Below, piece by piece: positions 3,523 to 24,657 of a stretch of DNA of 64,000 nucleotides (the stretch's first letter is position 1; every line of letters begins with the position of its first letter). The DNA lies in NCBI GenBank assembly GCA_964625535.1, contig CAZVEX010000005.1, positions 3,477 to 67,476 on the forward strand, read 5' to 3'. The translations under genes were made by a program, and so were the position numbers. This DNA is from an uncultured Gammaproteobacteria bacterium (lineage in GTDB: Bacteria; Patescibacteriota; Microgenomatia; Daviesbacterales; UBA10151). The notes beneath the pieces were generated by a model that saw only the letters and a list, made by a program, of their open reading frames with translations, was not told the origin of the DNA and ran no database searches.

Positions 3523-5747
3523 ATCAGTACGGTTTGATTCATCTCATCTAAGGCATTTTTTAAGCCCTGCTCGCCAAAAAGGGCAACTGCTTTTTGTATT
3601 CCGCCCTGTTCCCGAAGCGGGGGTTTGGTAAAATCTTCTGCCGTAACCTCTATATCTCCTGCCACAAATCTATTTTTAAGTTGTGATAAAAGCATTATTT
3701 GTTCAATGCTAAAATCTTTTTGTCTAAGCCATGAATCAAAATTTTTATTTACTCTTTCTTTTTTGGTGGGAAAAGTATATCTGCCTAAAGCTGCTTTAAT
3801 AAAATCAGCCAGTGATCCTGAAGGCTGATTGTATGCTTCTTTTAAGTTGTCTTCATTAAAGTAATCTTTAGGGCTATTTAATTTATCTGCTAATTTTTCT
3901 AACTCTTCTTGCTCCAGCTCTTTATCAGATAGGATTTTTTGAACCGTTTGATCCTCCTCCATTTTTTCTATAGTTTTCTCAAACTTTTGTGTATAGTTTT
4001 GGCGGTCTACAGCCATTCCTTCCGGGCCAATATAAATCATCTGCCTGCTTTGCATTTCATCAGACAGCTCATGTTCTTTAACTACTATAAATTCTTTTTT
4101 GTGCTTTGCTTCTTCCTCCTCAATTTTTTGAGCAAGTTCTCTTGGAAGAGCTTTTTCTCCGGGGACGGCATTTTCCAGCATCGGATCATTAAAACGCTCT
4201 GCATTTCCCACAAAATCATAAATTAAAAATGACTCCTTATTTATGCTTTTGTCTTTTCTTGAACCTCTGCCCCGCATTTGCTGGTATAAAACTACCGAAG
4301 CGGTCGGGCGCATCATTACTAAATTCTCAATGCTTGGCGCGTCAATACCGGTATCAAGCATGCCAACTGAAATTAAACAAACCGGAAATTGCTGTTTTTT
4401 AAAATCTTTTAGAATTTGTCCCGGGTTTGGAGTATCGGAAGTTATAACCTGGGCAAAGTTCCCCCGATACTCTGAAAAAACTTCATCAAAAAACCTTTTG
4501 AGCTGGGCGGCATGATTCTTGGTAACTGCAAAAAGAAGAGTTTTTCTAAGATGATCGCCTTTGCGTTGTTTTTCCATTTCTGCAAACTCCTGCACCATCA
4601 GCTTATTTCTGGATTCAATGGTAATAGTTCGCTCAAGCTCCGAGGGTTTATAGTCTACGCCATCGTAATGCACACCTTCTACCGTAATCCTGGATTTTGC
4701 TAGGTAAATTTGATAACTAGCTAGCCAGCCATCTTTTATAGCCTCTACTATACCATAGGCAAATGTAGGTTCCCCACTTTTGGTAGCATGATTCCAGCAT
4801 TTGTAAAATTCATAAGTGTTTCTGACTAATCTTTTTTCCTTCTCATTAACAAACTCATAGTGACCTAAATTTGGAGTGGCAGTCATGCCTATTTGCAGAG
4901 CGTCAAAGTGATTTAGTAAATCTCGGTAAACATTATAAATTGAGCGGTGACACTCATCAGTCACCACCAGATCAAAATGACCCGGACCAAAACGCTCAAG
5001 TTGGGAAGCAATAGTAGGCAGGGTTCCGATAACAATTTGGCCTAATTCTTTTGGCTTGCCCCCATACCAAACCTTTGAGGGTGTATCTTTTAAATACTCT
5101 GCAAAAACATCCTTTGCTTGTTCGGCAAGTTGCTTGCGGTCAACCAGAAACAAAACTCTTTGAATTAAACCTGCCTCAAATAAGCGCTTCATAGTCATGG
5201 CTATGGTAAGTGTTTTACCGGTGCCGGTTGCCATTTCAATTAAAATTCTTCTCTTGCCATTTTCTATAGCCTTATCTACAGCTTCCATGGCTTCATTTTG
5301 ATAAGGTCTAACTGTTATTTCTTCATTTAGGTAATTAAATTTAGACGGAAATTGTATTTGACTTAGAGGCTTGGTATTTTTTTGAAGGGTATTTCTTCTT
5401 TGCAAATCTTCTCTTGAGTAAAATGAATCTACAAGTCTGGCCGCGTCGTTTTTATAATCCCAAAAATATATAATTTCTCCATTGGAGAGAAAAATATAAG
5501 GAGCACTAATAGACTCTGCGTATTCTTTTGCTTGCTGTTGAGCTAAATTGGGTTCTATTGAAAATCTTTTTGCTTCAATAACTGCCAAAGGGCGGCCTTG
5601 ACTGTCTTTTAATAAATAGTCTGCTCTACCATCGGCGGCTGCTTCTTCTGTTGAGACTTGAGTTTTATCTTCAATATCCCAACCGGCTTCACGAAGAAGC
5701 CTATCTATAACTATACGGGCGTCTGTCTCTGGTCTTTTATCACTCAT
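3519..5747 (-). CDS. hsdR: Type I restriction enzyme R subunit (HsdR-like, short form, EcoEI-R-type C-terminus)
   Basis: 742 aa. N-terminal 'ETDARIVIDRLLREAGW' HsdR_N nuclease-fold motif, helicase motif I 'MATGTGKT', motif II 'DECHRS', motif VI 'QMRGRGSR', EcoEI_R_C-like tail. Confidence 0.8.
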   Translation of the reverse strand: MSDKRPETDARIVIDRLLREAGWDIEDKTQVSTEEAAADGRADYLLKDSQGRPLAVIEAKRFSIEPNLAQQQAKEYAESISAPYIFLSNGEIIYFWDYKNDAARLVDSFYSREDLQRRNTLQKNTKPLSQIQFPSKFNYLNEEITVRPYQNEAMEAVDKAIENGKRRILIEMATGTGKTLTIAMTMKRLFEAGLIQRVLFLVDRKQLAEQAKDVFAEYLKDTPSKVWYGGKPKELGQIVIGTLPTIASQLERFGPGHFDLVVTDECHRSIYNVYRDLLNHFDALQIGMTATPNLGHYEFVNEKEKRLVRNTYEFYKCWNHATKSGEPTFAYGIVEAIKDGWLASYQIYLAKSRITVEGVHYDGVDYKPSELERTITIESRNKLMVQEFAEMEKQRKGDHLRKTLLFAVTKNHAAQLKRFFDEVFSEYRGNFAQVITSDTPNPGQILKDFKKQQFPVCLISVGMLDTGIDAPSIENLVMMRPTASVVLYQQMRGRGSRKDKSINKESFLIYDFVGNAERFNDPMLENAVPGEKALPRELAQKIEEEEAKHKKEFIVVKEHELSDEMQSRQMIYIGPEGMAVDRQNYTQKFEKTIEKMEEDQTVQKILSDKELEQEELEKLADKLNSPKDYFNEDNLKEAYNQPSGSLADFIKAALGRYTFPTKKERVNKNFDSWLRQKDFSIEQIMLLSQLKNRFVAGDIEVTAEDFTKPPLREQGGIQKAVALFGEQGLKNALDEMNQTVLI

Positions 5748-7183: not shown

Positions 7184-8182
7184 ATGATAATATTGGGAAT
7201 TGAAACTACCTGTGACGAGACAGGGGCTGCTGTCTTGCAGCAAAAAAATGACAGGATACAAATTTTATCTAATGTGGTGGCATCTTCTGCCTCTTTGCAA
7301 GCCAAATATGGCGGGATAATTCCCGAGCAGGCAGCCAGGGAACAAATAAAAAGTATTATTCCAGTTATTCAAGAAGCAATTGAAAATTGTAAATTAAAAA
7401 TTGAAAATTTAGACGCTATTAGCGTCTCTCATGGTCCGGGATTGATTGGATCGCTCCTGGTGGGAGTGGAAACAGCCAAAACTTTGGCCTTAGTATGGAA
7501 TAAACCCCTTATACCGGTTAATCATTTAATCGGACATTTTTATGCAAATTGGATTGGTCGATCTTCGCCCAAATTCCCCTGTATTGGTCTTCTGGTTTCC
7601 GGTGGCCACACTGATTTAGTTTTGTTCCAAAATCATGGTAAATATAAATATTTAGGAGGAACCCGGGATGATGCGGCAGGGGAATGTTTTGACAAATGCG
7701 CCCGGCTTTTGCGTTTGCCTTACCCGGGTGGGCCGGAAATTAGCAAATTAGCTGAAAAAGGATCTGATATTTATAAATTACCAAGGCCAATGATGGATTC
7801 GGGGGACTTTGATTTTTCCTTTTCCGGATTAAAAACTGCAGTAGCTAATCTCATTCAGAATTCAGAATTCAGAATTCAGAATTTGGCTGCGAGTATTGAA
7901 GCTGCTATTGTTGATGTTTTAGTTGCAAAAACTATCCTGGCTGGCCAAAAATATCAAGTTGAACAAATTATGGTGGCAGGCGGCGTTGCAGCAAATCAGA
8001 AACTAGTTTGTGAATTGAAATTGAAAATTGAAAATTTAAAATTGAAAATTACATTGCATGTGCCGTCTGCACATTTATGTACCGACAATGCTGCCATGAT
8101 TGCTGCCGCGGCATTTTTTATAGAACCAATTTCTGACCCTTTGAAACTCCAAGCCGATCCCAGTCTTGCGCTCAAGTATTAA
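7184..8182 (+). CDS. tsaD: tRNA N6-adenosine threonylcarbamoyltransferase TsaD (Kae1/Gcp)
   Basis: N-terminus 'MIILGIETTCDETGAAVL', 'SGG' and 'HxxGH' motifs. Contains in-frame short tandem repeats (separate features). Confidence 0.9.
   Translation: MIILGIETTCDETGAAVLQQKNDRIQILSNVVASSASLQAKYGGIIPEQAAREQIKSIIPVIQEAIENCKLKIENLDAISVSHGPGLIGSLLVGVETAKTLALVWNKPLIPVNHLIGHFYANWIGRSSPKFPCIGLLVSGGHTDLVLFQNHGKYKYLGGTRDDAAGECFDKCARLLRLPYPGGPEISKLAEKGSDIYKLPRPMMDSGDFDFSFSGLKTAVANLIQNSEFRIQNLAASIEAAIVDVLVAKTILAGQKYQVEQIMVAGGVAANQKLVCELKLKIENLKLKITLHVPSAHLCTDNAAMIAAAAFFIEPISDPLKLQADPSLALKY
7855..7877. repeat. Tandem heptamer repeat (AGAATTC/CAGAATT x3.3) inside tsaD
   Basis: 'tcagaattcagaattcagaattt'. Same repeat family as at 38480-38520. 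Confidence 0.8.
8010..8050. repeat. AT-rich short repeat 'AATTGAAAATT' tandem copies inside tsaD
   Basis: 'aattgaaattgaaaattgaaaatttaaaattgaaaatt'. Related copies at 7381-7410, 40958-40985 and 41394-41440. Confidence 0.75.
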
Positions 8183-8203
8183 AGCCAATATACTTAACCC
8201 CAT

Positions 8204-10312
8204 ATGGACAAACAGTATAATCATCAGGGAGTTGAAGAAAAATGGTACAAGTTTTGGGAGGAACAGGGCCTTTTTAAGGCCGAGCCCCAATCAAGCAAAA
8301 AACCATATTCCCTTCTTGTTCCCCCACCCAATTTAACAGGAGAGCTGCATTTGGGCCACGCCATGCAACATTCCATTATGGACGCCATTGCCCGCTTTAA
8401 AAGAATGCAAGGATATGACGTTCTGCTCCTCCCCGGAGTTGACCATGCCGGTATTGCCTTTGAAAGTACGTTAGATAAAATTCTTACCAAAGAAGGGTTA
8501 TTCAAACAAAAACTTGGCCGAGATAAATGGTTAGAACGAGCGTGGAAATTTAAGACGCAAGTTTATCAATCATTTCATCGCACATGGACAGTTTTTGGAT
8601 TATCGGCCGACTGGTCAAAAGAAGTTTTTACACTTGAGCCCAAGGTGCAAAAGGCGGTTTTTGCCCAGTTTCAAGCTTTCTGGGATCAAGATCTACTTTA
8701 TAAAGGCGCCTATATTGTCCAGTGGTGCCCTAAATGCAACACAGCGATTGAAGACATTGAGATGGAATATGACGAGCGAAAAGAAAAATTGTATTTTCTC
8801 AAATATGGTCCCCTCACTCTCGCCACGGCCAGGCCCGAAACAAAATTCGGTGACACGGCCATGGCAGTTAACCCAAAGGATAAAAGATACAAAGATTACG
8901 TCGGCAAAGAATTTGAAATAGAAACACTGGCGGGCAAGAAAAAAATGAGGGTGGTGGCTGATGAGGCAGTGGATCCCAAATTCGGCACCGGGGTGATCAA
9001 GGTGACACCGGGTCATGATTTTACCGATTATGAAATCGGCAAGCGCCATAATCTGCCAATTCTGCAAGCGATTGATAAAAACGGCAAGCTGACGGATTTG
9101 GCCGGAAAATATGCCGGTATGAAAGTTTACGAAGCAAGGGAGGCCATGCTGCCGGAGCTTAAGAAAAAAGGGGTTTTAGTAAAAGAAGAAGATTATACTC
9201 ATTCGGTGGCAGTTTGCGAAAGATGTAAAAGTGTCGTTGAACCCTTAATTTCCGAGGAATGGTTTGTCAAAATGGCGCCTTTGGCCCAAAAAGCTTTGAA
9301 AAATATCAAAAAAGTTAATTTTGTGCCCAAAAATTATTTAAAAATTTTAACGACTTGGATTAAAAATATTCACGACTGGTCAATTTCCCGTTCTCTTTGG
9401 TGGGGACATCGCATCCCTGTCTGGTATTGCCAAAAATGCAATCCTCATCATTTAGTAGGTAAGGATAAAGATATGGTAGTTTCAATGGATGAACCGGGTA
9501 AAAATTGCCAGACTTGCGGGCAAAAACATTGGGTCCAGGACCAACAAGTTCTGGATACCTGGTTTTCTTCAGGTATGTGGCCTTTATCTACTTTAGGCTG
9601 GCCTAATGAAACTAAAGAGCTTAAAAAATATTATCCCTGGGATTTTGAAACCTCTGCTCCGGAAATCAAATTTTTATGGATTGCCAGAATGATCATGTTG
9701 GGACTCTGGTTTGCCAGTGACATTCCTTTTAAAAATATGTTTTTCCATGGCATGTTACGGGATTTGCAAGGCAGAAAATTTTCCAAATCCCTGGGTAACG
9801 GCATTGATCCCAATGAATTGAGAAATCAATGGGGTACTGATGCCACCCGCATGGCTTTATACACTTATGCCATTCCTGGACGGGACGGCCGGGCCTCCCG
9901 GGAGACCATGGATGAGCGGTGTAAAAACTTCCGCAATTTTGCCACCAAGCTGTGGAACATCACCAGATTTATCTTAGCCTCGCAAGGCCCGACCTTGCGA
10001 ACTAAAAATGCCGATGATCAATGGATCAAGGATGAGCTTAATAAAACCATTAAATCTGTTACCAATAATCTGGAGGGATTTAAACTGCATCTGGCCAGCG
10101 AAGCTTTATATGATTTTATTTGGCACAAATTTGCAGATCAATATATTGAAAAATCAAAAACCCGCCGAGCCGAAGCTCAATCCACTTTAGAATATATTTT
10201 CAAAACCAGCCTGGAACTCTTGCATCCCTTTATGCCTTTTATTACAGAGGAATTATGGCAACACCTACCTCATCAGGGAAAATCAATTATGACTGCCAAA
10301 TGGCCTTCTTAA
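8204..10312 (+). CDS. valS: Valyl-tRNA synthetase (short form lacking C-terminal coiled-coil)
   Basis: 'PPPNLTGELHLGHA' (ValRS HIGH region) and 'KFSKSLGN' (KMSKS). 702 aa. Confidence 0.85.
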   Translation: MDKQYNHQGVEEKWYKFWEEQGLFKAEPQSSKKPYSLLVPPPNLTGELHLGHAMQHSIMDAIARFKRMQGYDVLLLPGVDHAGIAFESTLDKILTKEGLFKQKLGRDKWLERAWKFKTQVYQSFHRTWTVFGLSADWSKEVFTLEPKVQKAVFAQFQAFWDQDLLYKGAYIVQWCPKCNTAIEDIEMEYDERKEKLYFLKYGPLTLATARPETKFGDTAMAVNPKDKRYKDYVGKEFEIETLAGKKKMRVVADEAVDPKFGTGVIKVTPGHDFTDYEIGKRHNLPILQAIDKNGKLTDLAGKYAGMKVYEAREAMLPELKKKGVLVKEEDYTHSVAVCERCKSVVEPLISEEWFVKMAPLAQKALKNIKKVNFVPKNYLKILTTWIKNIHDWSISRSLWWGHRIPVWYCQKCNPHHLVGKDKDMVVSMDEPGKNCQTCGQKHWVQDQQVLDTWFSSGMWPLSTLGWPNETKELKKYYPWDFETSAPEIKFLWIARMIMLGLWFASDIPFKNMFFHGMLRDLQGRKFSKSLGNGIDPNELRNQWGTDATRMALYTYAIPGRDGRASRETMDERCKNFRNFATKLWNITRFILASQGPTLRTKNADDQWIKDELNKTIKSVTNNLEGFKLHLASEALYDFIWHKFADQYIEKSKTRRAEAQSTLEYIFKTSLELLHPFMPFITEELWQHLPHQGKSIMTAKWPS

Positions 10313-16956: not shown

Positions 16957-18102
16957 TCATTTTAACTTTAAACGGGCTAAAGATAAACCCCAAACTAAAA
17001 ATAACAATCTGTAACCTTGAGGCAGGGTTAAAAAGTAATGGTCAAATAAACCCAGGAATAGTATGGCGTATAGGGTATAGCGTATAGAGGGTAATTTCAA
17101 AAAATAGCCAATAAGACCAATAAATCCAATTAGACCTATTATCCCGGTCTCCGAGAGCTCAAGAAGAAAAATATTGTGCACGGGCTGTAAAAATCTGCTG
17201 GGGCCAGAAACTAAATCCTGCTGGGCCGAAATAAAATTATTTAAGCCCACCCCAAAAAGAGGCGCGCTTTTAAACATTTCCCAGGCTTCAATGCTTAAAC
17301 CTTCTCTTCGCAAGATCGTTAAACTATCATAACTAAAAAGAGCCTGGAATCTGGTATAAAGAATGGGGGAAAGCAAAAGCGCTGATACCAACAAAATAAG
17401 TTGCCATTTTTTAGGTAAAGTCAGAAGCCCCAAGATAAATCCTCCCAAAATTGCCACTCTGGACATAGTTAAAACAATTATTATTCCACCAATTATCAGT
17501 AAAATTCTTGAGGAAAGCAGTGATAGAACAACTATCATGTATCCTGCCAAAACATTGGGATGAGGAAAGGTTGCGTAAGGCCGTAAAAATTGCCAGCCGA
17601 AGAAATCAAACTTGGCAATACCCGGCGTTGAAATAGAAAAAGTTCTTTCCCCTAAAATCCAAAGCCCCAGTGTCCCTCCTTTTATAAATTGTAAAATAGC
17701 CAAGCCTGCCTCAAATAAAATCCCTACAGAAAGAGGCAAAAAAATTCTATTTAAATTTTCCCATCTTTGGGATGCAAGGTAGACTCCCAAAAAACCAGCT
17801 ATTACATATTGTTCCAGCCTGACTAAACCCGCTCCGATATTTTCCGCTCCTAATAAAGATAAAGCTTGGGTTATTAAAAAAATTAGCAGCAGATTTAAGG
17901 CTAATTTATTAACTTTTGGTTTTGTTATAACCCAGGTTATTAAAAGTCCTATTACCAATATGTCCCAAAAATATAAAGTGGGGGAAAGATAGTCTATTTT
18001 TAGGGAATAAATATAGGAAAATTGTGGCCAAAAATGGCGACCAAGTTGAGTGGGTAAAAAGAGCAGGGTTAGAAAAAGAAGAATGCTCTCAATCCTCTTC
18101 AC
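16957..18102 (-). CDS. O-antigen ligase/polymerase-like membrane protein (Wzy_C family)
   Basis: 381 aa, polytopic. 'PVHNIFLLELSETGIIGLIGFIGL' Wzy_C-like motif with a conserved His. Confidence 0.65.
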   Translation of the reverse strand: MKRIESILLFLTLLFLPTQLGRHFWPQFSYIYSLKIDYLSPTLYFWDILVIGLLITWVITKPKVNKLALNLLLIFLITQALSLLGAENIGAGLVRLEQYVIAGFLGVYLASQRWENLNRIFLPLSVGILFEAGLAILQFIKGGTLGLWILGERTFSISTPGIAKFDFFGWQFLRPYATFPHPNVLAGYMIVVLSLLSSRILLIIGGIIIVLTMSRVAILGGFILGLLTLPKKWQLILLVSALLLSPILYTRFQALFSYDSLTILRREGLSIEAWEMFKSAPLFGVGLNNFISAQQDLVSGPSRFLQPVHNIFLLELSETGIIGLIGFIGLIGYFLKLPSIRYTLYAILFLGLFDHYFLTLPQGYRLLFLVWGLSLARLKLK

Positions 18103-18551
18103 TTTTGGCTTTTGACTTTAATCACAATATGTCTGTCCCGTCCCTCGCCAATGCTCTCGCTTTCAACTCCTTCCATCTCCGATACCACCATATGTACTAT
18201 TCGCCGCTGCCAGGGACTCATTGGCTCAAGTTCTAAATCCGCTCCCGTATCTAAAACCTTCGTCACCCAGCTTTTTGCGCTGGCAGCGAGCTCTTCTTCT
18301 TTTTGTTTTCTCCACCCTCCCACATCCAAAATTACTCTTTTATAATCATCTGCCATTTTTCTGGAAATCATCTGATTAACGATTAACTGCAGCCCGTCCA
18401 AAGATTGCCCTCCCGAACCAATTAAGCGGCCCGCGTCTTTGGTTTCAATCAAAACATGAAGGCCGTTTTCATCTTCCTCAATTTCATAAGAGCCTTCCAA
18501 AAGAAGCAGTCCCAAGATATAATCTAAAATGTTTGATAGTTCTTGTTCCAT
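18099..18551 (-). CDS. jag: Jag/KhpB-like KH-R3H RNA-binding protein
   Basis: R3H motif '...SPWQRRIVHMVVSEMEGVESESIGEGRDRHIVIK'. Conserved position downstream of yidC. Confidence 0.8.
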   Translation of the reverse strand: MEQELSNILDYILGLLLLEGSYEIEEDENGLHVLIETKDAGRLIGSGGQSLDGLQLIVNQMISRKMADDYKRVILDVGGWRKQKEEELAASAKSWVTKVLDTGADLELEPMSPWQRRIVHMVVSEMEGVESESIGEGRDRHIVIKVKSQK

Positions 18552-18563
18552 AAATTTTACACC

Positions 18564-19409
18564 TTACGCTTTAAATTTAAACTTTCCGGCGAAGCCGGAT
18601 AAACCTCCCCAGCCCGCCAGCCGATATTGCTGAATTATCCCCAGTATTGTATATGTATTCCAGTAAATTGCAAGCCCGATGGGAAATTGAAAGGCAAAAT
18701 AGCCTATCATGACAGGCATCAGATAAACCATTTGAGATTGGACCTGGCCCATGCTTTCTTCCAATCCCTCTTTTTCTTTTGTTTCTTTGGGGCTCTCTCC
18801 GGCATGATGCTTAATAGCCTTGGGCATGGTCATTTTTGACTGGATAAAGGTTAAGGCGGCGGTTGCAACAGGAATCAAAAGCAGGGCCGGCCCGTATTTA
18901 ACAAATTCCGACGGCTTAACCCCTAAATTCAATCCGAAGAAATTCGGGTCGGGCAAGCTCTTTAGATGCATGGAAGGGACATACAGGAGCGAATTCACCC
19001 AATCTAAATTGGCCTGACCCGTTCCGGGCAAAATATTAATAATTGCCTGGTACAACCCGATGAATACGGGGATCTGAAGAAGCGCCGGCAAACAGCCTCC
19101 GGCAGGATTAACTCCATGCTCTTTATAAAGAGCCATTTGAGCGCCGGCCAGAGCTTTTTTGTCGCCTGAATGTTTTTTCTTAAGCTCGTCCAGATGAGGT
19201 TTTAAATCGGCCATTTTTTTGGTCATTTTAATTTGAGACGACATCAACGGCCAGACCAAAAGTCTGATGGCCACGGTTAAAATAATCAGGGCAAATCCCA
19301 AGGCCCCAGGGAGGCGCAATGACTGCAAAAACTGGAATGTAATTATCAGAAGATTAATAATCGGCTGTATAAACGCGGCAATAAAAATATCCCCGATATT
19401 CATCTGCAA
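18564..19409 (-). CDS. yidC: Membrane protein insertase YidC/Oxa1
   Basis: 'GGCLPALLQIPVFIGLYQ' YidC signature. Conserved rnpA-yidD-yidC order. Confidence 0.9.
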   Translation of the reverse strand: MQMNIGDIFIAAFIQPIINLLIITFQFLQSLRLPGALGFALIILTVAIRLLVWPLMSSQIKMTKKMADLKPHLDELKKKHSGDKKALAGAQMALYKEHGVNPAGGCLPALLQIPVFIGLYQAIINILPGTGQANLDWVNSLLYVPSMHLKSLPDPNFFGLNLGVKPSEFVKYGPALLLIPVATAALTFIQSKMTMPKAIKHHAGESPKETKEKEGLEESMGQVQSQMVYLMPVMIGYFAFQFPIGLAIYWNTYTILGIIQQYRLAGWGGLSGFAGKFKFKA

Positions 19410-19600
19410 CTCCAGATTCTTTTTACGCCCATCAATACCCCTTTAATGATCCCGAAACGCATGACGCTTTGTTTGGTATATTCAGAGCAGGAAATGGGAT
19501 TTTTGCAAGCTCCTCCGGGGGCAAAAACCCGTAGCAACCCATGGTCAAAAGATAAGAATAATTGATAAAAGTTAATTAGGCTAATTAATAATCTTCTCAT
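19400..19600 (-). CDS. yidD: Membrane protein insertion efficiency factor YidD
   Basis: 66 aa with conserved 'C..P.SCSEY' and a C-terminal Cys. Confidence 0.8.
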   Translation of the reverse strand: MRRLLISLINFYQLFLSFDHGLLRVFAPGGACKNPISCSEYTKQSVMRFGIIKGVLMGVKRIWSCR

Positions 19601-19919
19601 TTCGTAACTTTTCCTCTAAATCCAAAAACACCAGACCTGATTTTACACTAAGAATACCTGCTTTGGGAAGGGCCACTATGTTTATGCCTGCAGGCAAGAT
19701 AGGAAACAGCGCCTCTACGGCCCAGGAAGTAAGCCTCTTGGCTCTATTTCTCTCTGCGGCTTTTTTAAATGATTTTCCGGAAACGGCAATGCCGATCCTG
19801 GGCTTTGCATTATCACCCGTTTTGATAAAAAGTTTTAAGTATTTAGTTTCCAGTTTCTTGCCTGCGGCAACCCGCTTAAAATCTGTTTTTAAGTTGAGTC
19901 TTTGGGATTTAGGAAGCAT
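19581..19919 (-). CDS. rnpA: Ribonuclease P protein component
   Basis: 'MLPKSQRLNLKTDFKRV...' RnpA family. Directly downstream of rpmH. Confidence 0.85.
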   Translation of the reverse strand: MLPKSQRLNLKTDFKRVAAGKKLETKYLKLFIKTGDNAKPRIGIAVSGKSFKKAAERNRAKRLTSWAVEALFPILPAGINIVALPKAGILSVKSGLVFLDLEEKLRNEKIIN

Positions 19920-19926
19920 ATTGAAG

Positions 19927-20064
19927 CTAGACCGTCAGTTTTTTCCTGCCTCTTGCCATTCTTCTTTTCAAAACCCTTCTGCCGTCGTGAGTTCTTGCCC
20001 TTTTAAGAAACCCGTGCTTTTTCGCTCTTTTTAATTTTTTGGGCTGGTATGTTCTTTTCGGCAT
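19927..20064 (-). CDS. rpmH: 50S ribosomal protein L34
   Basis: Absent from the ORF track (<60 aa). Reverse-strand translation gives '[45 protein letters not shown]'. Confidence 0.85.
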
Positions 20065-20073
20065 ACCAGTTGA

Positions 20074-21222
20074 TTATATACCAGCTCCGTTGGCGAAACA
20101 ATATTCTCTTGGCGCATCTTTTAAATTTTGGGCAAGTGCTTCAATTTGAGGCAGGCCTTTCAAAAATTCAATATTCCCCATACTATCTATATGAGATTTA
20201 AGATGAGCACAAAAATAACTCTGATATCTTACCCATACCTGCTGCTGGGTTAATCCGAACCTCTCGTGAAAAAGTCTTTCCAAATCAGCATATTTTTTAA
20301 CTTGATCCTGCTCTTGTTGATCCTTTATTCCACAACTTTGGGCAAAAGATAAAAGTACCTTCCTGTAAGCTTCAACCATGACTTTATACCACTCATCTAT
20401 AGAGGCTCCTGTCCTTGATCCATCAGCACTCAAATAACGCATGGTACTTTTTAAGTCCGGACGCCTTCTCCAAAAAAGATACATACAATCTTCTGAGGTT
20501 CGACCATTAGCTTCATAAAAAGGGTGGATTAAAATAAATGCCCATTGAAAAGCAGTAAGATAGTGGTAAACGCTGTCCCTTCGAACCTGCGGGTTGATCC
20601 CGTCTGGCGGAAAAAGCCCATCCATTTTATCCCCCAGCCTTCTTAATAAACCCGGGGTATTTTCATAACTTGCCCCTGGCAGCAAGTAATCGTAATTGTA
20701 GATTTCCGTCGGTAAAAAAAGGGGGGAACGAATAATTCCGGCAATGTCTTTTGATTTGGGATCTTCCACATAAACCTTGGCTTGTGAAGGATCAAGAACA
20801 TAATGCTCTCTGCCTTTAGTATGAGCTCTGTGTATTAAAAGAATTTGACTAACAGTATCTATACCAAACCTTTGGCAAAGGGGGAGAAGATTCCCTCTAA
20901 TACGATCTGTGGCTAAAACTCTCTGTCTTTTTGCTTCAAGAGCTAACCCCGGAGGGTGGGTAACTGTCCAAGACAGACGATCTATAAGCTTGTCACTTGT
21001 CCGCAAACCTTCAAGCATCAGCGGTACCCACAAACCTTCTTCGTCTTGACTATCACTAGCCCAAGCTAAACGATTGGAAAATACATCTAGTCCTTCCACC
21101 ACACAATCCTTCACATACTGCAGGCGGGCCTTGACACCTTGCATTATTGATCCTAGCCCGTTCCCAAAATCAATTTCATGCGACATGTCAGAGTGTTTTT
21201 CTTCGCCCTTCTGGGGGGACAT
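20074..21222 (-). CDS. Fic-domain protein with non-canonical active-site motif
   Basis: 382 aa. 'HPFYEANGRTSE' versus the canonical Fic motif HPFx[DE]GNGRxxR (Gly to Ala, final Arg to Glu). Located between rpmH and dnaA. Confidence 0.7.
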   Translation of the reverse strand: MSPQKGEEKHSDMSHEIDFGNGLGSIMQGVKARLQYVKDCVVEGLDVFSNRLAWASDSQDEEGLWVPLMLEGLRTSDKLIDRLSWTVTHPPGLALEAKRQRVLATDRIRGNLLPLCQRFGIDTVSQILLIHRAHTKGREHYVLDPSQAKVYVEDPKSKDIAGIIRSPLFLPTEIYNYDYLLPGASYENTPGLLRRLGDKMDGLFPPDGINPQVRRDSVYHYLTAFQWAFILIHPFYEANGRTSEDCMYLFWRRRPDLKSTMRYLSADGSRTGASIDEWYKVMVEAYRKVLLSFAQSCGIKDQQEQDQVKKYADLERLFHERFGLTQQQVWVRYQSYFCAHLKSHIDSMGNIEFLKGLPQIEALAQNLKDAPREYCFANGAGI

Positions 21223-21487
21223 TAAAAAGCGAAACCCCCTTAATTAATACTGCTACGGAGGCTAAAAGGAGTGTAGGACTACCAATTGCATCAGCAACAC
21301 GGAAAAGCGCATACGAGGCCAGCATATAAAACGGCCAAGTGAATCTTTCTGTAGATAATGGCTCTTCTGCCAGATCTCTGCCTACAAATTCTCCGTCAGA
21401 GGTAAACACCAGTGTTGATAGTTGACGATCTAAAGACGCTTTTCCAGGAAGGCTGCTTAGAATATGCCTTTCTGCTTCATGAATCAT
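21188..21487 (-). CDS. Small hypothetical protein overlapping the Fic gene start (possible partner)
   Basis: 99-aa ORF, 35-nt overlap with the Fic start. No canonical (S/T)xxxE(G/N) antitoxin motif found. Confidence 0.3.
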   Translation of the reverse strand: MIHEAERHILSSLPGKASLDRQLSTLVFTSDGEFVGRDLAEEPLSTERFTWPFYMLASYALFRVADAIGSPTLLLASVAVLIKGVSLFNVPPEGRRKTL

Positions 21488-21540
21488 GCAGGCATTTTAT
21501 CAGAGAGAGACAGTTAAATCAAAAATCTTGATCTATTTAT

Positions 21541-21603
21541 TTATAGTTTCTCTATATTGCCAAGACAAAAAGCGTGGATTAGATTGTGGATAAGTTTTCC
21601 ACA
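21541..21603. promoter_or_regulatory. dnaA upstream region with DnaA boxes
   Basis: 'tgtggataa' (21585-21593) is a perfect reverse-complement TTATCCACA; 'ttttccaca' lies next to it; AT-rich. Confidence 0.6.
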
Positions 21604-22920
21604 ATGGATAATCTGAAAATCTGGCACAAATTCTTAGAAACTATTAAGCCGCAGGTAAGTCCTGTCAACTTTAAAGGATGGTTTTCCCAAATAAAACTGG
21701 ATTCCATTAAAGACGATAAGATCACTTTTTCCGCGCCTCACGCTTTTATTAAAGAAACTTTAACGCAAAGGCATCTACCTCTTATGGAAAAAGCCGTTGA
21801 AGACGTGATGGGTAAAAAAATGCAAGTTGAGATCACAGTCAAAAAACAAAGTAACACCCGACCTGATGAGGAAGAAGGGTTTTTCCAACCGATTCAACCA
21901 ACAACATCCGCTCTTAATCCCAAATATACCCTGGAAAATTTTGTGGTTGGTTTATCAAATAACCTGGCTTATGCCGCAGCCCAGGCTGTGGTACAAAACC
22001 CCGGAGTCTCTTATAATCCTTTATTTGTCTACGGCGGTACAGGAGTAGGGAAAACTCATTTAATGCTGGGTATTGGTAATGCCCTGTTAAAAACAGCGTC
22101 CCACTTAAAAATAATTTACTGCTCTTCGGAAAAATTCATGAACGATTACGTGGAGGCAATTCAAACTCACCGCATGGGGAATTTAAGAACAAAATACCGC
22201 TCGGCTCATGTTTTATTAATTGACGACATCCAGTTTTTCTCCGGCAGGGAAGGCACGCAGGAAGAATTTTTCCACACTTTTAACGAGCTGCAGGGGAAAA
22301 ACTCGCAGATAGTTTTAACGTCGGACCGCCCGCCCAATGAAATTGCCAAACTGGAGGATCGTTTAAAAAGCCGGTTTGCAGGAGGATTAATGGTGGATAT
22401 TCAATTTCCGGATTTTGATACCAGAGTGGCAATTTTACAAGCCAAGTGTGCGGAGCGCGGGGAGAGCCTGCCTGAAGAATCCTTAAAACTGATTGCCTCT
22501 TCCATGGAATCAAATATCAGAGAGCTGGAGGGAAAACTAATCCAGCTTCTGCAGGCTCTTAAAACCCATAATCTTCCTCCAACTGCGGAAAATATTGCTC
22601 CTTATCTTTCCCAACAGGTTAAAAATAATCTTAAAATTGACCACAAAAAAATACTGGACAGCATCTGCGCTTTTTTTAATTTAAGCCTGAAAGATCTGGC
22701 GGGCCCTAAAAGACAAAAAGAGCTGGTTTTACCAAGACATCTCGCCATGTATATCCTCTGCGAAGAATTAAACATGACAGTGGAAAAAATAGGGCAGATC
22801 CTGGGCGGGCGGGATCACACCACAGTAATGCACGGCCGAGACAGAATTAAGCAGCTGGTTAACTCCGATAGAGAAGTACAAAGACTGCTGATAGAAGTCC
22901 GGCAAAAAGCAATTAGTTAA
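21586..22920 (+). CDS. dnaA: Chromosomal replication initiator DnaA
   Basis: Walker A 'GGTGVGKTHL', AAA+ boxes, C-terminal DNA-binding domain. The track start is GTG at 21586; ATG at 21604 ('MDNLK') is more likely. Confidence 0.95.
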   Translation: MDKFSTMDNLKIWHKFLETIKPQVSPVNFKGWFSQIKLDSIKDDKITFSAPHAFIKETLTQRHLPLMEKAVEDVMGKKMQVEITVKKQSNTRPDEEEGFFQPIQPTTSALNPKYTLENFVVGLSNNLAYAAAQAVVQNPGVSYNPLFVYGGTGVGKTHLMLGIGNALLKTASHLKIIYCSSEKFMNDYVEAIQTHRMGNLRTKYRSAHVLLIDDIQFFSGREGTQEEFFHTFNELQGKNSQIVLTSDRPPNEIAKLEDRLKSRFAGGLMVDIQFPDFDTRVAILQAKCAERGESLPEESLKLIASSMESNIRELEGKLIQLLQALKTHNLPPTAENIAPYLSQQVKNNLKIDHKKILDSICAFFNLSLKDLAGPKRQKELVLPRHLAMYILCEELNMTVEKIGQILGGRDHTTVMHGRDRIKQLVNSDREVQRLLIEVRQKAIS

Positions 22921-23100
22921 GTTATCCACCAACGCTGGGTCTTTTCCACAAGTTATCCACAAATTATAAACAGCTAATTAACATAAAAAGTTTTAAGTTT
23001 TAAGTTTTAAGTTTTAAGTTATCCACATATCCACCATACATATAAATATGACTATTATTATTAAAAAGATAGTGTATAATTCTAAAACAAAAGTGGAAAA
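22921..23100. promoter_or_regulatory. Putative oriC: DnaA-box cluster plus AT-rich unwinding element
   Basis: Perfect TTATCCACA at 22953-22961 and 23019-23027, near-perfect boxes at 22922-22930, 22942-22950 and 23028-23036, (ttttaag)x4 at 22990-23018, then an AT-rich tract. Confidence 0.65.
22990..23018. repeat. Tandem heptamer (TTTTAAG)x4 within putative oriC
   Basis: Direct reading of the sequence. Confidence 0.9.
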
Positions 23101-23102
23101 GT

Positions 23103-23555
23103 ATGGACATTAACTGGATTTTAGTTTTAATTATCCTGGCAGGACTTGTCATAGTTTATTTAATGGGTAGGTTACACGGAAAACCCAAGGCAGACATACC
23201 TTCTGATTTAATTGATTTATATAAGGGCTTGCAGGATTTACCGGCCAAAGTTTTACAGGTTATTCAGGGGTCGATTAACCCCCAAAAAGGTAAAATGGCC
23301 GAGCTTTTGACTTACGCCGAACTGCGTTATGACTATGACCGGATCATCCCTTTGGGCTGGCCGATTGATTTTATCGGCATTAAAAATAACCAGCAGATAG
23401 ATTTTATAGAGGTTAAATCCGGAGCTTCCCTCTTGACAGAAGAGGAAAAACACATTAAAAACCTAATTGCGGCCGGAAGGGTCCATTTTAGGCTGATTAA
23501 AGTAACGGAAGAAGAGGTGCACAAGTTTGTAACTACCCGGAAAGGTATGGAATGA
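23103..23555 (+). CDS. Membrane-anchored hypothetical protein with PD-(D/E)xK-like nuclease signature
   Basis: 150 aa, N-terminal TM helix. 'IDFIGIK...IDFIEVKSG' resembles a D...E.K restriction-endonuclease-fold core. Sits between dnaA and dnaN. Confidence 0.35.
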   Translation: MDINWILVLIILAGLVIVYLMGRLHGKPKADIPSDLIDLYKGLQDLPAKVLQVIQGSINPQKGKMAELLTYAELRYDYDRIIPLGWPIDFIGIKNNQQIDFIEVKSGASLLTEEEKHIKNLIAAGRVHFRLIKVTEEEVHKFVTTRKGME

Positions 23556-23556
23556 A

Positions 23557-24657
23557 ATGAAATTCCAAATATTGCAACAAGATTTGCTGCCTGCGCTGCA
23601 GGCTGCTACCCGCAGCGTGGGGGTGAGGGCTACTTTGCCGGTTTTGGAAAATATCCTTTTGTCTGTTGAGGGTGGCAAATTAAAAATTGCCGCAACCAAT
23701 TTGGAAATCGGCATTATGAAATTTGTTCGTGTAAAAGAAGCAGCGGCAGGGGAAGTGACAATTCCTGCCAAGTTATTGCTTGAGGTTGTTTCCGGCTTGG
23801 GGCCAAGCGAGGTGGAGATGGAGTCAAGTAATGAAATTTTAGTAGTAGCAAGCGGCAAGTTCAAAGCCACCTTAAATGGGATCGCCGCCGGGGAGTTCCC
23901 GGCCATACCCTTAACAGACGGCAAAGGCATAACTTTTTCCAAAGAAGTATTGTTGGGCTGCGGACAAATCCTTTTTGCTGCGGCAGTGGACGAGGGCCGG
24001 CCGGTTTTAACAGGAGTTTTGACAGACGTCGGGGAGGAGAAAATAGATTTTGTGGCCACAGATGGTTTCCGGTTAGCTCACAGGCAGGTTGGTTTGCCTA
24101 AAGGAACCAAGCCGTTTAAGAGTCTGATCCCCAAAAGAACATTTGAAGAATTGCTGCGCGTTATTGGCGAGGATGAAGCAGAATCAGTCAACATTTCTCC
24201 CTCGCAGAACCAAAACCAGATAGTTTTTTCCGTTGGTAAAACAGTAGTTTCCTCGAGGTTGATAGAGGGTTCTTTCCCCGCCTGGGAGAAAATTATTCCC
24301 AGCCAAACCGTTGGCCGGGCGCTGGTGGACAAAGACGAGTTCTCAAGGGCGCTGAAGCTGGCGGCGGTGTTTGGCAAAAACGAGGCCAATATTGTGGTTT
24401 TAACCTCCCAGGAGAATAAACTAACTTTGGCCTCGTCGGTCAAGGAAGTGGGCAGTCAGGAAAACGAGGTGGAGGCTCAAGTTGAAGGAGATAGTTTGCA
24501 AGTTGCTTTTAACACCAGGTTTTTACAAGATGTTGTTTCCGCTTCTCCTTCCAGTCAGCTGATGATTGAATTTTCCGGGGCCCTGCAACCGGCTTTAATC
24601 AAACCAGTGGGAGAAGAAGGCTTGGAATACATTGTTATGCCTGTTCGTCTGTCTTAA
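23557..24657 (+). CDS. dnaN: DNA polymerase III beta sliding clamp
   Basis: 366 aa, 'MKFQILQQDLLPALQ...' typical DnaN. Follows dnaA. Confidence 0.9.
   Translation: MKFQILQQDLLPALQAATRSVGVRATLPVLENILLSVEGGKLKIAATNLEIGIMKFVRVKEAAAGEVTIPAKLLLEVVSGLGPSEVEMESSNEILVVASGKFKATLNGIAAGEFPAIPLTDGKGITFSKEVLLGCGQILFAAAVDEGRPVLTGVLTDVGEEKIDFVATDGFRLAHRQVGLPKGTKPFKSLIPKRTFEELLRVIGEDEAESVNISPSQNQNQIVFSVGKTVVSSRLIEGSFPAWEKIIPSQTVGRALVDKDEFSRALKLAAVFGKNEANIVVLTSQENKLTLASSVKEVGSQENEVEAQVEGDSLQVAFNTRFLQDVVSASPSSQLMIEFSGALQPALIKPVGEEGLEYIVMPVRLS

Follow-up and report, generated by a model that had tools for sequence, protein, structure and literature searches.

A Fic-fold protein with glutamate in place of the second motif arginine, encoded between rpmH and dnaA in a Candidatus Daviesbacteria genome

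Introduction

As a scaffold for post-translational modification, Fic enzymes are versatile, and a gene for a Fic-like protein found directly between rpmH and dnaA raises the question of what, if anything, is special about it: its position, its small upstream neighbor, or the protein itself. The gene is on a 64,000-nucleotide (nt) stretch of a Candidatus Daviesbacteria genome, called the window here, and all coordinates count from window position 1. An original prediction had described it as an AnkX/Doc-like Fic gene which, together with a 99-amino acid (aa) open reading frame (ORF) in a class-I toxin-antitoxin-type arrangement, was inserted in a conserved origin region. The two ORFs, one for the Fic-like protein (20074–21222, minus strand; 382 aa in its longest form) and one for the 99-aa protein (21188–21487, minus strand), are indeed found between rpmH and dnaA and are co-directional with rpmH. 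The locus itself is ordinary, and the Fic annotation was already known: the 382-aa protein has the same sequence as MBI3109603.1, a “Fic family protein” in NCBI. Neither the position beside dnaA and rpmH nor the supposed toxin-antitoxin pairing has special meaning. What is of interest is the family signature, which marks a rare clade where the second motif Arg (R2) is invariably Glu and no regulatory module is present, occurring in bacteria of the candidate phyla radiation (CPR), whose biology is little known. To our knowledge, every Fic motif variant characterized to date (Doc, AnkX) has turned out to carry new chemistry. With its γ-phosphate clamp Arg systematically changed to Glu and its inhibitory helix absent, this clade is a defined candidate for a non-AMPylating activity. 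The reading favored here, with some but by no means full confidence, is that the window gene encodes a stand-alone Fic-fold enzyme of this rare clade, having Glu at R2, using a non-canonical donor, and lacking the canonical inhibitory helix.

A distant Fic-fold protein

The 382-aa ORF encodes a real, though distant, Fic-fold protein. Its match to the Pfam Fic profile (PF02661) scores 24.3 bits (E 5.7e-05; residues 185–250, profile positions 38–92 of 93), which is real but marginal against a gathering score of 24. Five of six other clade members tested also pass (24.2–28.4 bits), and the sixth scores 21.9. AlphaFold2 (AF2) models made from a 14-sequence family alignment have pLDDT values of 81 for the full protein and 89 for a trimmed version (pTM 0.89), with residues 70–382 modeled confidently. 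They have the architecture expected of Fic proteins: a helical core, a β-hairpin flap between α2 and α3, and the signature loop between α4 and α5. The hairpin is at residues 175–182 (strands 175–176 and 181–182), α3 at 189–203, and α4 at 218–232, with the motif loop (233–241) leading into α5 (239–252). When the full model was compared to the PDB with Foldseek, the best 50 matches were all Fic proteins (probability 0.9–1.0), among them BT_2513, FICD, NmFic, EfFic, SoFic, and Beps; Fic proteins also ranked top for the trimmed model and in a viral structure library.

Sequence searches against the PDB gave a single match for the window protein, FICD (phmmer, E ~1), in which QWAFILIHPFYEANGRTSEDCMYLF is aligned to the FICD active-site segment. 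The Fic motif aligns residue for residue with the FICD active-site loop, identifying H233 as the catalytic His and E244 as the position of R2. A profile of the whole family found no Fic chain among PDB sequences at E values up to 10, its lone match, to TuSp1 (2k3o_A, E 2.5), being spurious; P0025 had no PDB match. The Pfam score, the Foldseek matches, and the FICD loop alignment together bear out the original identification of a Fic protein. Two outcomes had been named that would speak against it, a motif lying outside the active-site loop and a HipA or other fold; neither was found, the loop being positioned between α4 and α5.

The closest comparison is with the class II AMPylases (human FICD/HYPE, Bacteroides BT_2513, and Shewanella SoFic), which include the best structural matches as well as the only PDB sequence match, FICD. 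The window protein shares with them the order of elements (α2, GxxR, β-hairpin flap, α3, α4, HPFx(D/E)xNGRTS, α5), and like them it is a single-gene enzyme whose core is extended by helices on both the N- and the C-terminal side. It differs from them in having Glu for R2, no conserved inhibitory helix, and an extra insertion of ~20 residues that includes E139 and Q147, and identities are just 12–17%.

Signature motif and start codon

The Fic signature loop is HPFYEANGRTSED, residues 233–245 (H233–D245), encoded at 20488–20526 on the minus strand. No other match to the pattern H.F..[AGSC][NC][GK]R occurs in any of the window's six frames. Catalytic His233, Mg-binding Glu237, Asn239, the nest Gly240, and the first motif Arg (R1, Arg241) are all kept. 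The first Gly is changed to Ala, and R2 to Glu244 (nt 20491–20493), so that the sequence here, HPFYEANGRTSE, departs from the full canonical signature HPFx(D/E)GNGRxxR, which includes R2. The deviant motif that had been noted, with Gly to Ala and terminal Arg to Glu changes, is therefore correctly described.

Where the protein begins is less clear-cut than the longest ORF suggests. Gene callers applied to other assemblies of the same sequence chose M27 (nt 21144), which gives a protein of 356 aa. This start has an AGGA Shine-Dalgarno sequence 6 nt upstream, the best among the possible Fic starts, and on these grounds it is more likely to be the one used. The choice affects the relation to the upstream gene: starting from M1 the two ORFs overlap by 35 nt, from M13 they adjoin as TGA-c-ATG, and from M27 there is a gap of 43 nt. 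The overlap between the 99-aa ORF and the Fic start described earlier thus exists for the longest ORF and disappears with the better-supported start.

A small clade defined by Glu at R2

Relatives of the window protein are few. Among 5.8 billion proteins, a word-indexed search found 14, from Daviesbacteria, Roizmanbacteria, and other Patescibacteria, at 33–41% identity, and when 1.84 billion cluster representatives were searched exhaustively with a profile, only 49 clusters matched. More relatives, 25–32% identical, were found in Thiothrix and other Gammaproteobacteria by a scan of species-representative genomes. The clade is small and uncharacterized, and consists mainly of CPR Microgenomates (Daviesbacteria, Roizmanbacteria) and Thiothrix-type Gammaproteobacteria. 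No relative was encoded in the viral contigs scanned, which gives no hint of a phage origin. Full-text literature searches found no paper with the strings NGRTSE or FRDANGR, and none linking Fic proteins with the CPR.

In an alignment of 47 members, D106, Q226, H233, P234, R241, S243, E244, and L367 are invariant, and E139, Q147, G162, R165, F235, E237, N239, G240, T242, G268, and R270 nearly so. R270 is kept in 45 of the 47, and a conserved WxRRPDL segment holds R253 and R254. The position following E244 is Asp or Glu throughout the clade. E139 and Q147 belong to the ~20-residue insertion, which alignment with FICD places just ahead of the flap as a family-specific element. The Ala of the window motif is not conserved in the same way, since the first-Gly position can be A, G, C, S, V, or R. 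The deviation that defines the clade is the change of Arg to Glu at R2; the change of Gly to Ala is not family-wide.

This variability bears directly on the AnkX/Doc comparison, as the Ala on which it was based is not a feature of the family. The possibility considered is an AnkX-type phosphocholine transferase or a Doc-type kinase, with the nucleotide bound in inverted orientation. The Doc motif consensus, HxFx(D/N)(A/G)NKR, does allow Ala at the first Gly (PMC4177925), as found in the window protein. Doc, from the Phd-Doc system of phage P1, is likewise a member of the Fido superfamily, and the loss of R2 would fit a donor without a γ-phosphate at that site. AnkX, which uses CDP-choline as a nucleoside diphosphate (NDP)-linked donor with the same catalytic residues (PMC4177925), offers an analogy for loss of the γ-phosphate clamp, at the level of function only. 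The resemblances end there. Doc has Lys in place of the second Gly, is ~125 aa long with six helices, and is paired with the antitoxin Phd, whereas the window protein reads NGR rather than NKR, is 356–382 aa long, scores only 12.6 bits with the TIGR01550 model (cut-off 38.65), and has no Phd-like partner detectable in a Pfam scan. AnkX is defined by a CMP-binding domain (D28, R30, Y41, R44) and an insert domain that flank the Fic core, and also needs its ankyrin repeats (PMC4454073); no counterpart to any of them was detected in the window protein, and, as indirect evidence, no AnkX chain is among the PDB sequence matches (E ≤ 10) or the Foldseek top 50. An activity of either type is distinctly improbable, and the earlier label “AnkX/Doc-like” does not hold.

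Some members of the clade have additional features. Four of them (P0019, P0020, P0022, and P0024; for example, L021 8001–10706) are 890–920 aa long, with an N-terminal region of ~560 aa, conserved among the four, fused to the Fic module. This region, which has no Pfam match, may serve in targeting or in binding the substrate. Outside this genome, the closest relative (L011 5001–5993; 47% identity) is from the Microgenomates metagenome-assembled genome (MAG) JACOYD010000024, where NCBI lists a 244-aa hypothetical protein. The tblastn match begins ~260 nt upstream of that ORF, and the gene may be frameshifted or truncated in that assembly. The most distant subclade, with motif HPFWERNGRTSEE, is on a contig (L025; positions of note 8001–9050, plus strand, and 4371–4919, minus strand) beside thrS-infC-rpmI-rplT-pheST. 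The same contig has a weak match to a DOT1-like methyltransferase; as such proteins are eukaryote-like, this hints at a host-associated bacterium as its source.

Absence of an inhibitory helix

An inhibitory helix is carried by ~90% of Fic proteins with a canonical motif (PMC3667792), and the residue contacted by the inhibitory Glu, whether of an antitoxin or of a helix in cis, is R2 (PMC5033356). No match to the inhibitory motif (S/T)xxxE(G/N) was found at any conserved offset in 46 family proteins. The sole match in the window protein, SQDEEG at residues 58–63, is in the non-conserved, low-confidence N-terminus. The original prediction had found no canonical inhibitory helix in this one protein, and the same now holds across the family.

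Two other segments were considered. PLMLEG (residues 67–72, nt 21007–21024) is 20 residues ahead of a conserved PPG, an offset equal to that of the inhibitory TVAIEG from PG in FICD. The PLMLEG match is probably a coincidence: it is conserved in no homologue and is predicted to be coil. A hidden inhibitory role is also conceivable for E139, in an NEH segment; the FICD alignment, though weak, puts it in the α2-flap insertion instead of an N-terminal inhibitory helix, and with R2 absent it would have no canonical partner in any case.

Proposed activity of the clade

In AMPylating Fic enzymes, R1 binds the β-phosphate of the nucleotide and Asn the α-phosphate, the acidic motif residue holds Mg2+, and R2 clamps the γ-phosphate of ATP (PMC3667792). 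The residues that would hold a diphosphate and deprotonate a hydroxyl are kept in the clade, and on this basis we infer that its members are catalytically active. At the γ-phosphate clamp there are two acidic residues instead, E244 and the D/E following it, which argues against both a canonical ATP pose and canonical inhibition. The clade enzyme would still use its His to move a phosphate-linked group, taken from a donor that contains a pyrophosphate, onto a hydroxyl of a target protein. ATP in the canonical AMPylation-competent pose would not be that donor; an NDP-linked compound, or a nucleotide held in a different orientation, would be likelier. Nor would canonical inhibitory helices of class I, II, or III regulate the enzyme. 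By its motif, the window protein is probably not a canonical AMPylase.

Such a change has a precedent. In the EcFicT-like subgroup (E. coli Fic/YhfG), a phosphate-binding Arg of the motif is systematically replaced across a whole Fic subgroup, which is presumed to have lost AMPylation and gained a new activity (PMC5033356). The details are reversed: EcFicT has lost R1 and kept R2, which is bound by its cognate antitoxin, whereas the clade described here has kept R1, lost R2, and has no antitoxin.

Several points weigh against a stand-alone enzyme with a non-canonical donor. Its donor, target, and even catalytic activity are argued from motif conservation; the co-transcription with rpmH proposed below is drawn from consensus scans only; the PF02661 match of the window protein is right at the threshold; and the Foldseek scores are weak in absolute terms (E 2.5e-3 to 0.4, TM 0.25–0.4, identity 12–17%). 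In addition, a conserved Arg following the motif (R270, or those of WxRRPDL) could stand in for R2, so that ATP is bound after all. This last point is the basis of a different explanation, that the protein is an ordinary ATP-dependent AMPylase in which R270, or R253/R254, has taken over the γ-phosphate contact. The motif His, Glu, Asn, Gly, and R1 are all conserved and several invariant Arg residues follow; the closest structures (FICD, BT_2513, NmFic) are AMPylases; and no other Fic activity is nearly as common as AMPylation. It would however have to accommodate an invariant E244 and an acidic residue after it exactly at the γ-phosphate clamp site (PMC3667792), as well as the lack of the inhibitory helix that ~90% of canonical-motif Fic proteins possess. 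Subgroups with degenerate motifs have moreover been interpreted as not competent for adenylylation (PMC5033356). An ordinary AMPylase is therefore judged unlikely, though it retains appreciable weight.

It is also conceivable that the protein is an eraser, a hydrolase of the deAMPylase type, or else a non-catalytic Fic-fold binding module. FICD-type deAMPylation needs an active-site Glu, according to two reports (PMC6826200, PMC8373988), and the invariant E244 could act comparably in cis. Nothing specific to hydrolysis was found, and the conservation of His, the Mg-binding Glu, Asn, and R1 in 40–47 of 47 members argues for catalysis. Both roles are improbable.

If the non-canonical-donor enzyme is taken as the working interpretation, it can be extended, tentatively, to a new functional class of Fic proteins. 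In this extension the “GRTSE” clade (Q-x6-HPFxE-x-NGR-T-S-E-[DE]) would use its invariant Glu to redirect the fold to an undescribed donor or chemistry, such as a cationic head group linked to an NDP, or a substrate bridged by a metal, and would modify a housekeeping or host-cell protein in ultra-small CPR bacteria without any inhibitory module. This further step is possible, and is put forward as a minority view rather than as the expected outcome.

The 99-aa gene

The class-I toxin-antitoxin arrangement suggested earlier would make the 99-aa protein an antitoxin blocking the Fic active site, as in FicTA modules. The appearance of the locus is in its favor, with a small co-directional ORF immediately upstream that overlaps the longest Fic ORF by 35 nt or, with the M13 start, directly adjoins it. 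The small ORF is a real gene. It encodes a lineage-specific protein, identical to HYZ06_01035 of a Candidatus Daviesbacteria MAG and one of just 2 found in 5.8 billion proteins. Comparison with a 68%-identical homologue (at L008) gave a dN/dS of 0.29, with differences mostly at third codon positions, as expected for a genuine gene and not for a chance ORF.

That homologue also speaks against a functional pairing of the two genes. At L008 it is likewise divergent beside dnaA, and the intergenic region is conserved, but the next gene is an ABC transporter, without an orthologue in the window, and not a Fic gene. Conversely, none of the other 15 Fic-clade loci has a homologue of the 99-aa gene or any conserved small upstream gene. 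Their neighbors are unrelated (GIY-YIG, CysRS, sortase, TatD, RuvC/YebC, ABC-F), and an all-against-all BLAST of the ORFs from all 16 loci found nothing common to them except the Fic gene itself. The 99-aa protein lacks an (S/T)xxxE(G/N) motif and matches no family in Pfam, NCBIfam, or PADLOC; by hydropathy its C-terminal segment is hydrophobic and looks membrane-like. In the window protein the Arg that an antitoxin Glu would contact (R2; PMC5033356) is itself a Glu, and no overlap is left when translation begins at M27, the Fic start with the best support. With no co-occurring partner gene at 16 loci and no inhibitory motif conserved in the Fic family, the class-I module was rejected, and it is very improbable. 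The 99-aa gene is instead an unrelated, ancestral divergent neighbor that travels with dnaA, the Fic gene having landed between it and rpmH.

One recurrence was seen among the neighbors of the Fic-clade genes. Small GIY-YIG genes (78–90 aa) and cysteinyl-tRNA synthetase are found close to the Fic-clade gene, at most a few kb away, at three Microgenomates loci (L001 5688–5939; L004 4578–5963 and 12297–12533; L022 1151–2921). Shared synteny within the lineage is the probable reason, rather than any functional link; neither gene adjoins the window Fic gene. A defense role was not suggested by PADLOC, which gave only weak partial matches to Fic-type defense candidates (PDC-S04, 24 bits; SoFic, 13 bits) and no evidence of a defense system, and an NCBIfam scan gave nothing above cut-off.

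Genomic setting

The Fic gene is part of a tightly packed run of minus-strand genes, all co-directional, extending from jag/KhpB to the 99-aa ORF. The start of rpmH (19927–20064; ribosomal protein L34, Pfam Ribosomal_L34, E 3.6e-20) is 9 nt past the Fic stop codon, and rpmH heads a string of rnpA (19581–19919), yidD (19400–19600), yidC (18564–19409), and jag/KhpB (18099–18551). The only good promoter-like site found on that strand by a consensus scan, TTGATT-17-(TG)TAAAAT at 21494–21522, is 6 nt upstream of the 99-aa ATG, and its -10 region, TAAAAT, is conserved in the alignment with L008 (L008 440–475). A scan for terminator-like sites found none anywhere in 19800–21800. This site is likely to be the start of a transcript including the 99-aa gene, the Fic gene, and rpmH-rnpA-yidD-yidC-jag, with the Fic gene probably co-transcribed with the latter string. 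TAAAAT just 6 nt before the ATG, the absence of a Shine-Dalgarno sequence, and the conservation of this layout in L008 suggest a leaderless mRNA for the 99-aa gene.

The original prediction had the Fic gene inserted in the rpmH-dnaA origin region. Its divergent neighbor dnaA (21586–22920, plus strand, from a GTG start; Bac_DnaA, E 2e-64) is preceded in the rpmH-dnaA interval by only two DnaA boxes, both overlapping the dnaA start (21585–21603), as expected for autoregulation. The larger cluster is on the other side. A region at 22919–23060, right after the dnaA stop codon, has three perfect or near-perfect copies of AAGTTATCCACA, forming three AAGTTATCCAC[AC] 12-mer repeats, together with the further DnaA boxes TTTTCCACA and ATATCCACC and four tandem copies of AAGTTTT in an AT-rich tract. 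The cumulative GC skew has its minimum at ~21–22 kb of the window. The most likely place for the origin is this candidate oriC (22919–23060), on the side of dnaA that faces dnaN, and not the rpmH-dnaA interval; with the box cluster and AT-rich repeat downstream of dnaA, the Fic gene does not interrupt it. The adjacency of rpmH and dnaA is also not conserved in this lineage, as seen at L008, and the idea of an insertion into a conserved rpmH-dnaA origin region has to be given up on both counts.

There is likewise no evidence of a mobile element or of recent transfer, given that the GC content of the Fic gene (42.2%) is that of the window as a whole (mean 42.1%) and that its surroundings showed no direct or inverted repeats flanking it, no tRNA genes, and no Rfam RNAs. 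The gene looks like a resident, placed here by a lineage-specific rearrangement and not through a functional association.

Two smaller observations concern the dnaA region. The GTG at 21586 that begins the longest dnaA ORF is inside a perfect DnaA box (TTATCCACA, minus strand, 21585–21593), and an ATG in the same frame at 21604 (MDNLKIW...) coincides with the point where the conserved N-terminus begins in L008; the ATG may be the true start. Downstream, between the DnaA-box/AT-rich region and dnaN (23557–24657, plus strand), there is an ORF of 150 aa (23103–23555, plus strand) that ends 1 nt before the dnaN start. Its product has a hydrophobic N-terminal segment and a C-terminal match to PF10107 (E 9e-09), an endonuclease family related to archaeal Holliday junction resolvase. 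The dnaA-dnaN interval is usually free of genes, and this ORF is an unusual occupant of it.

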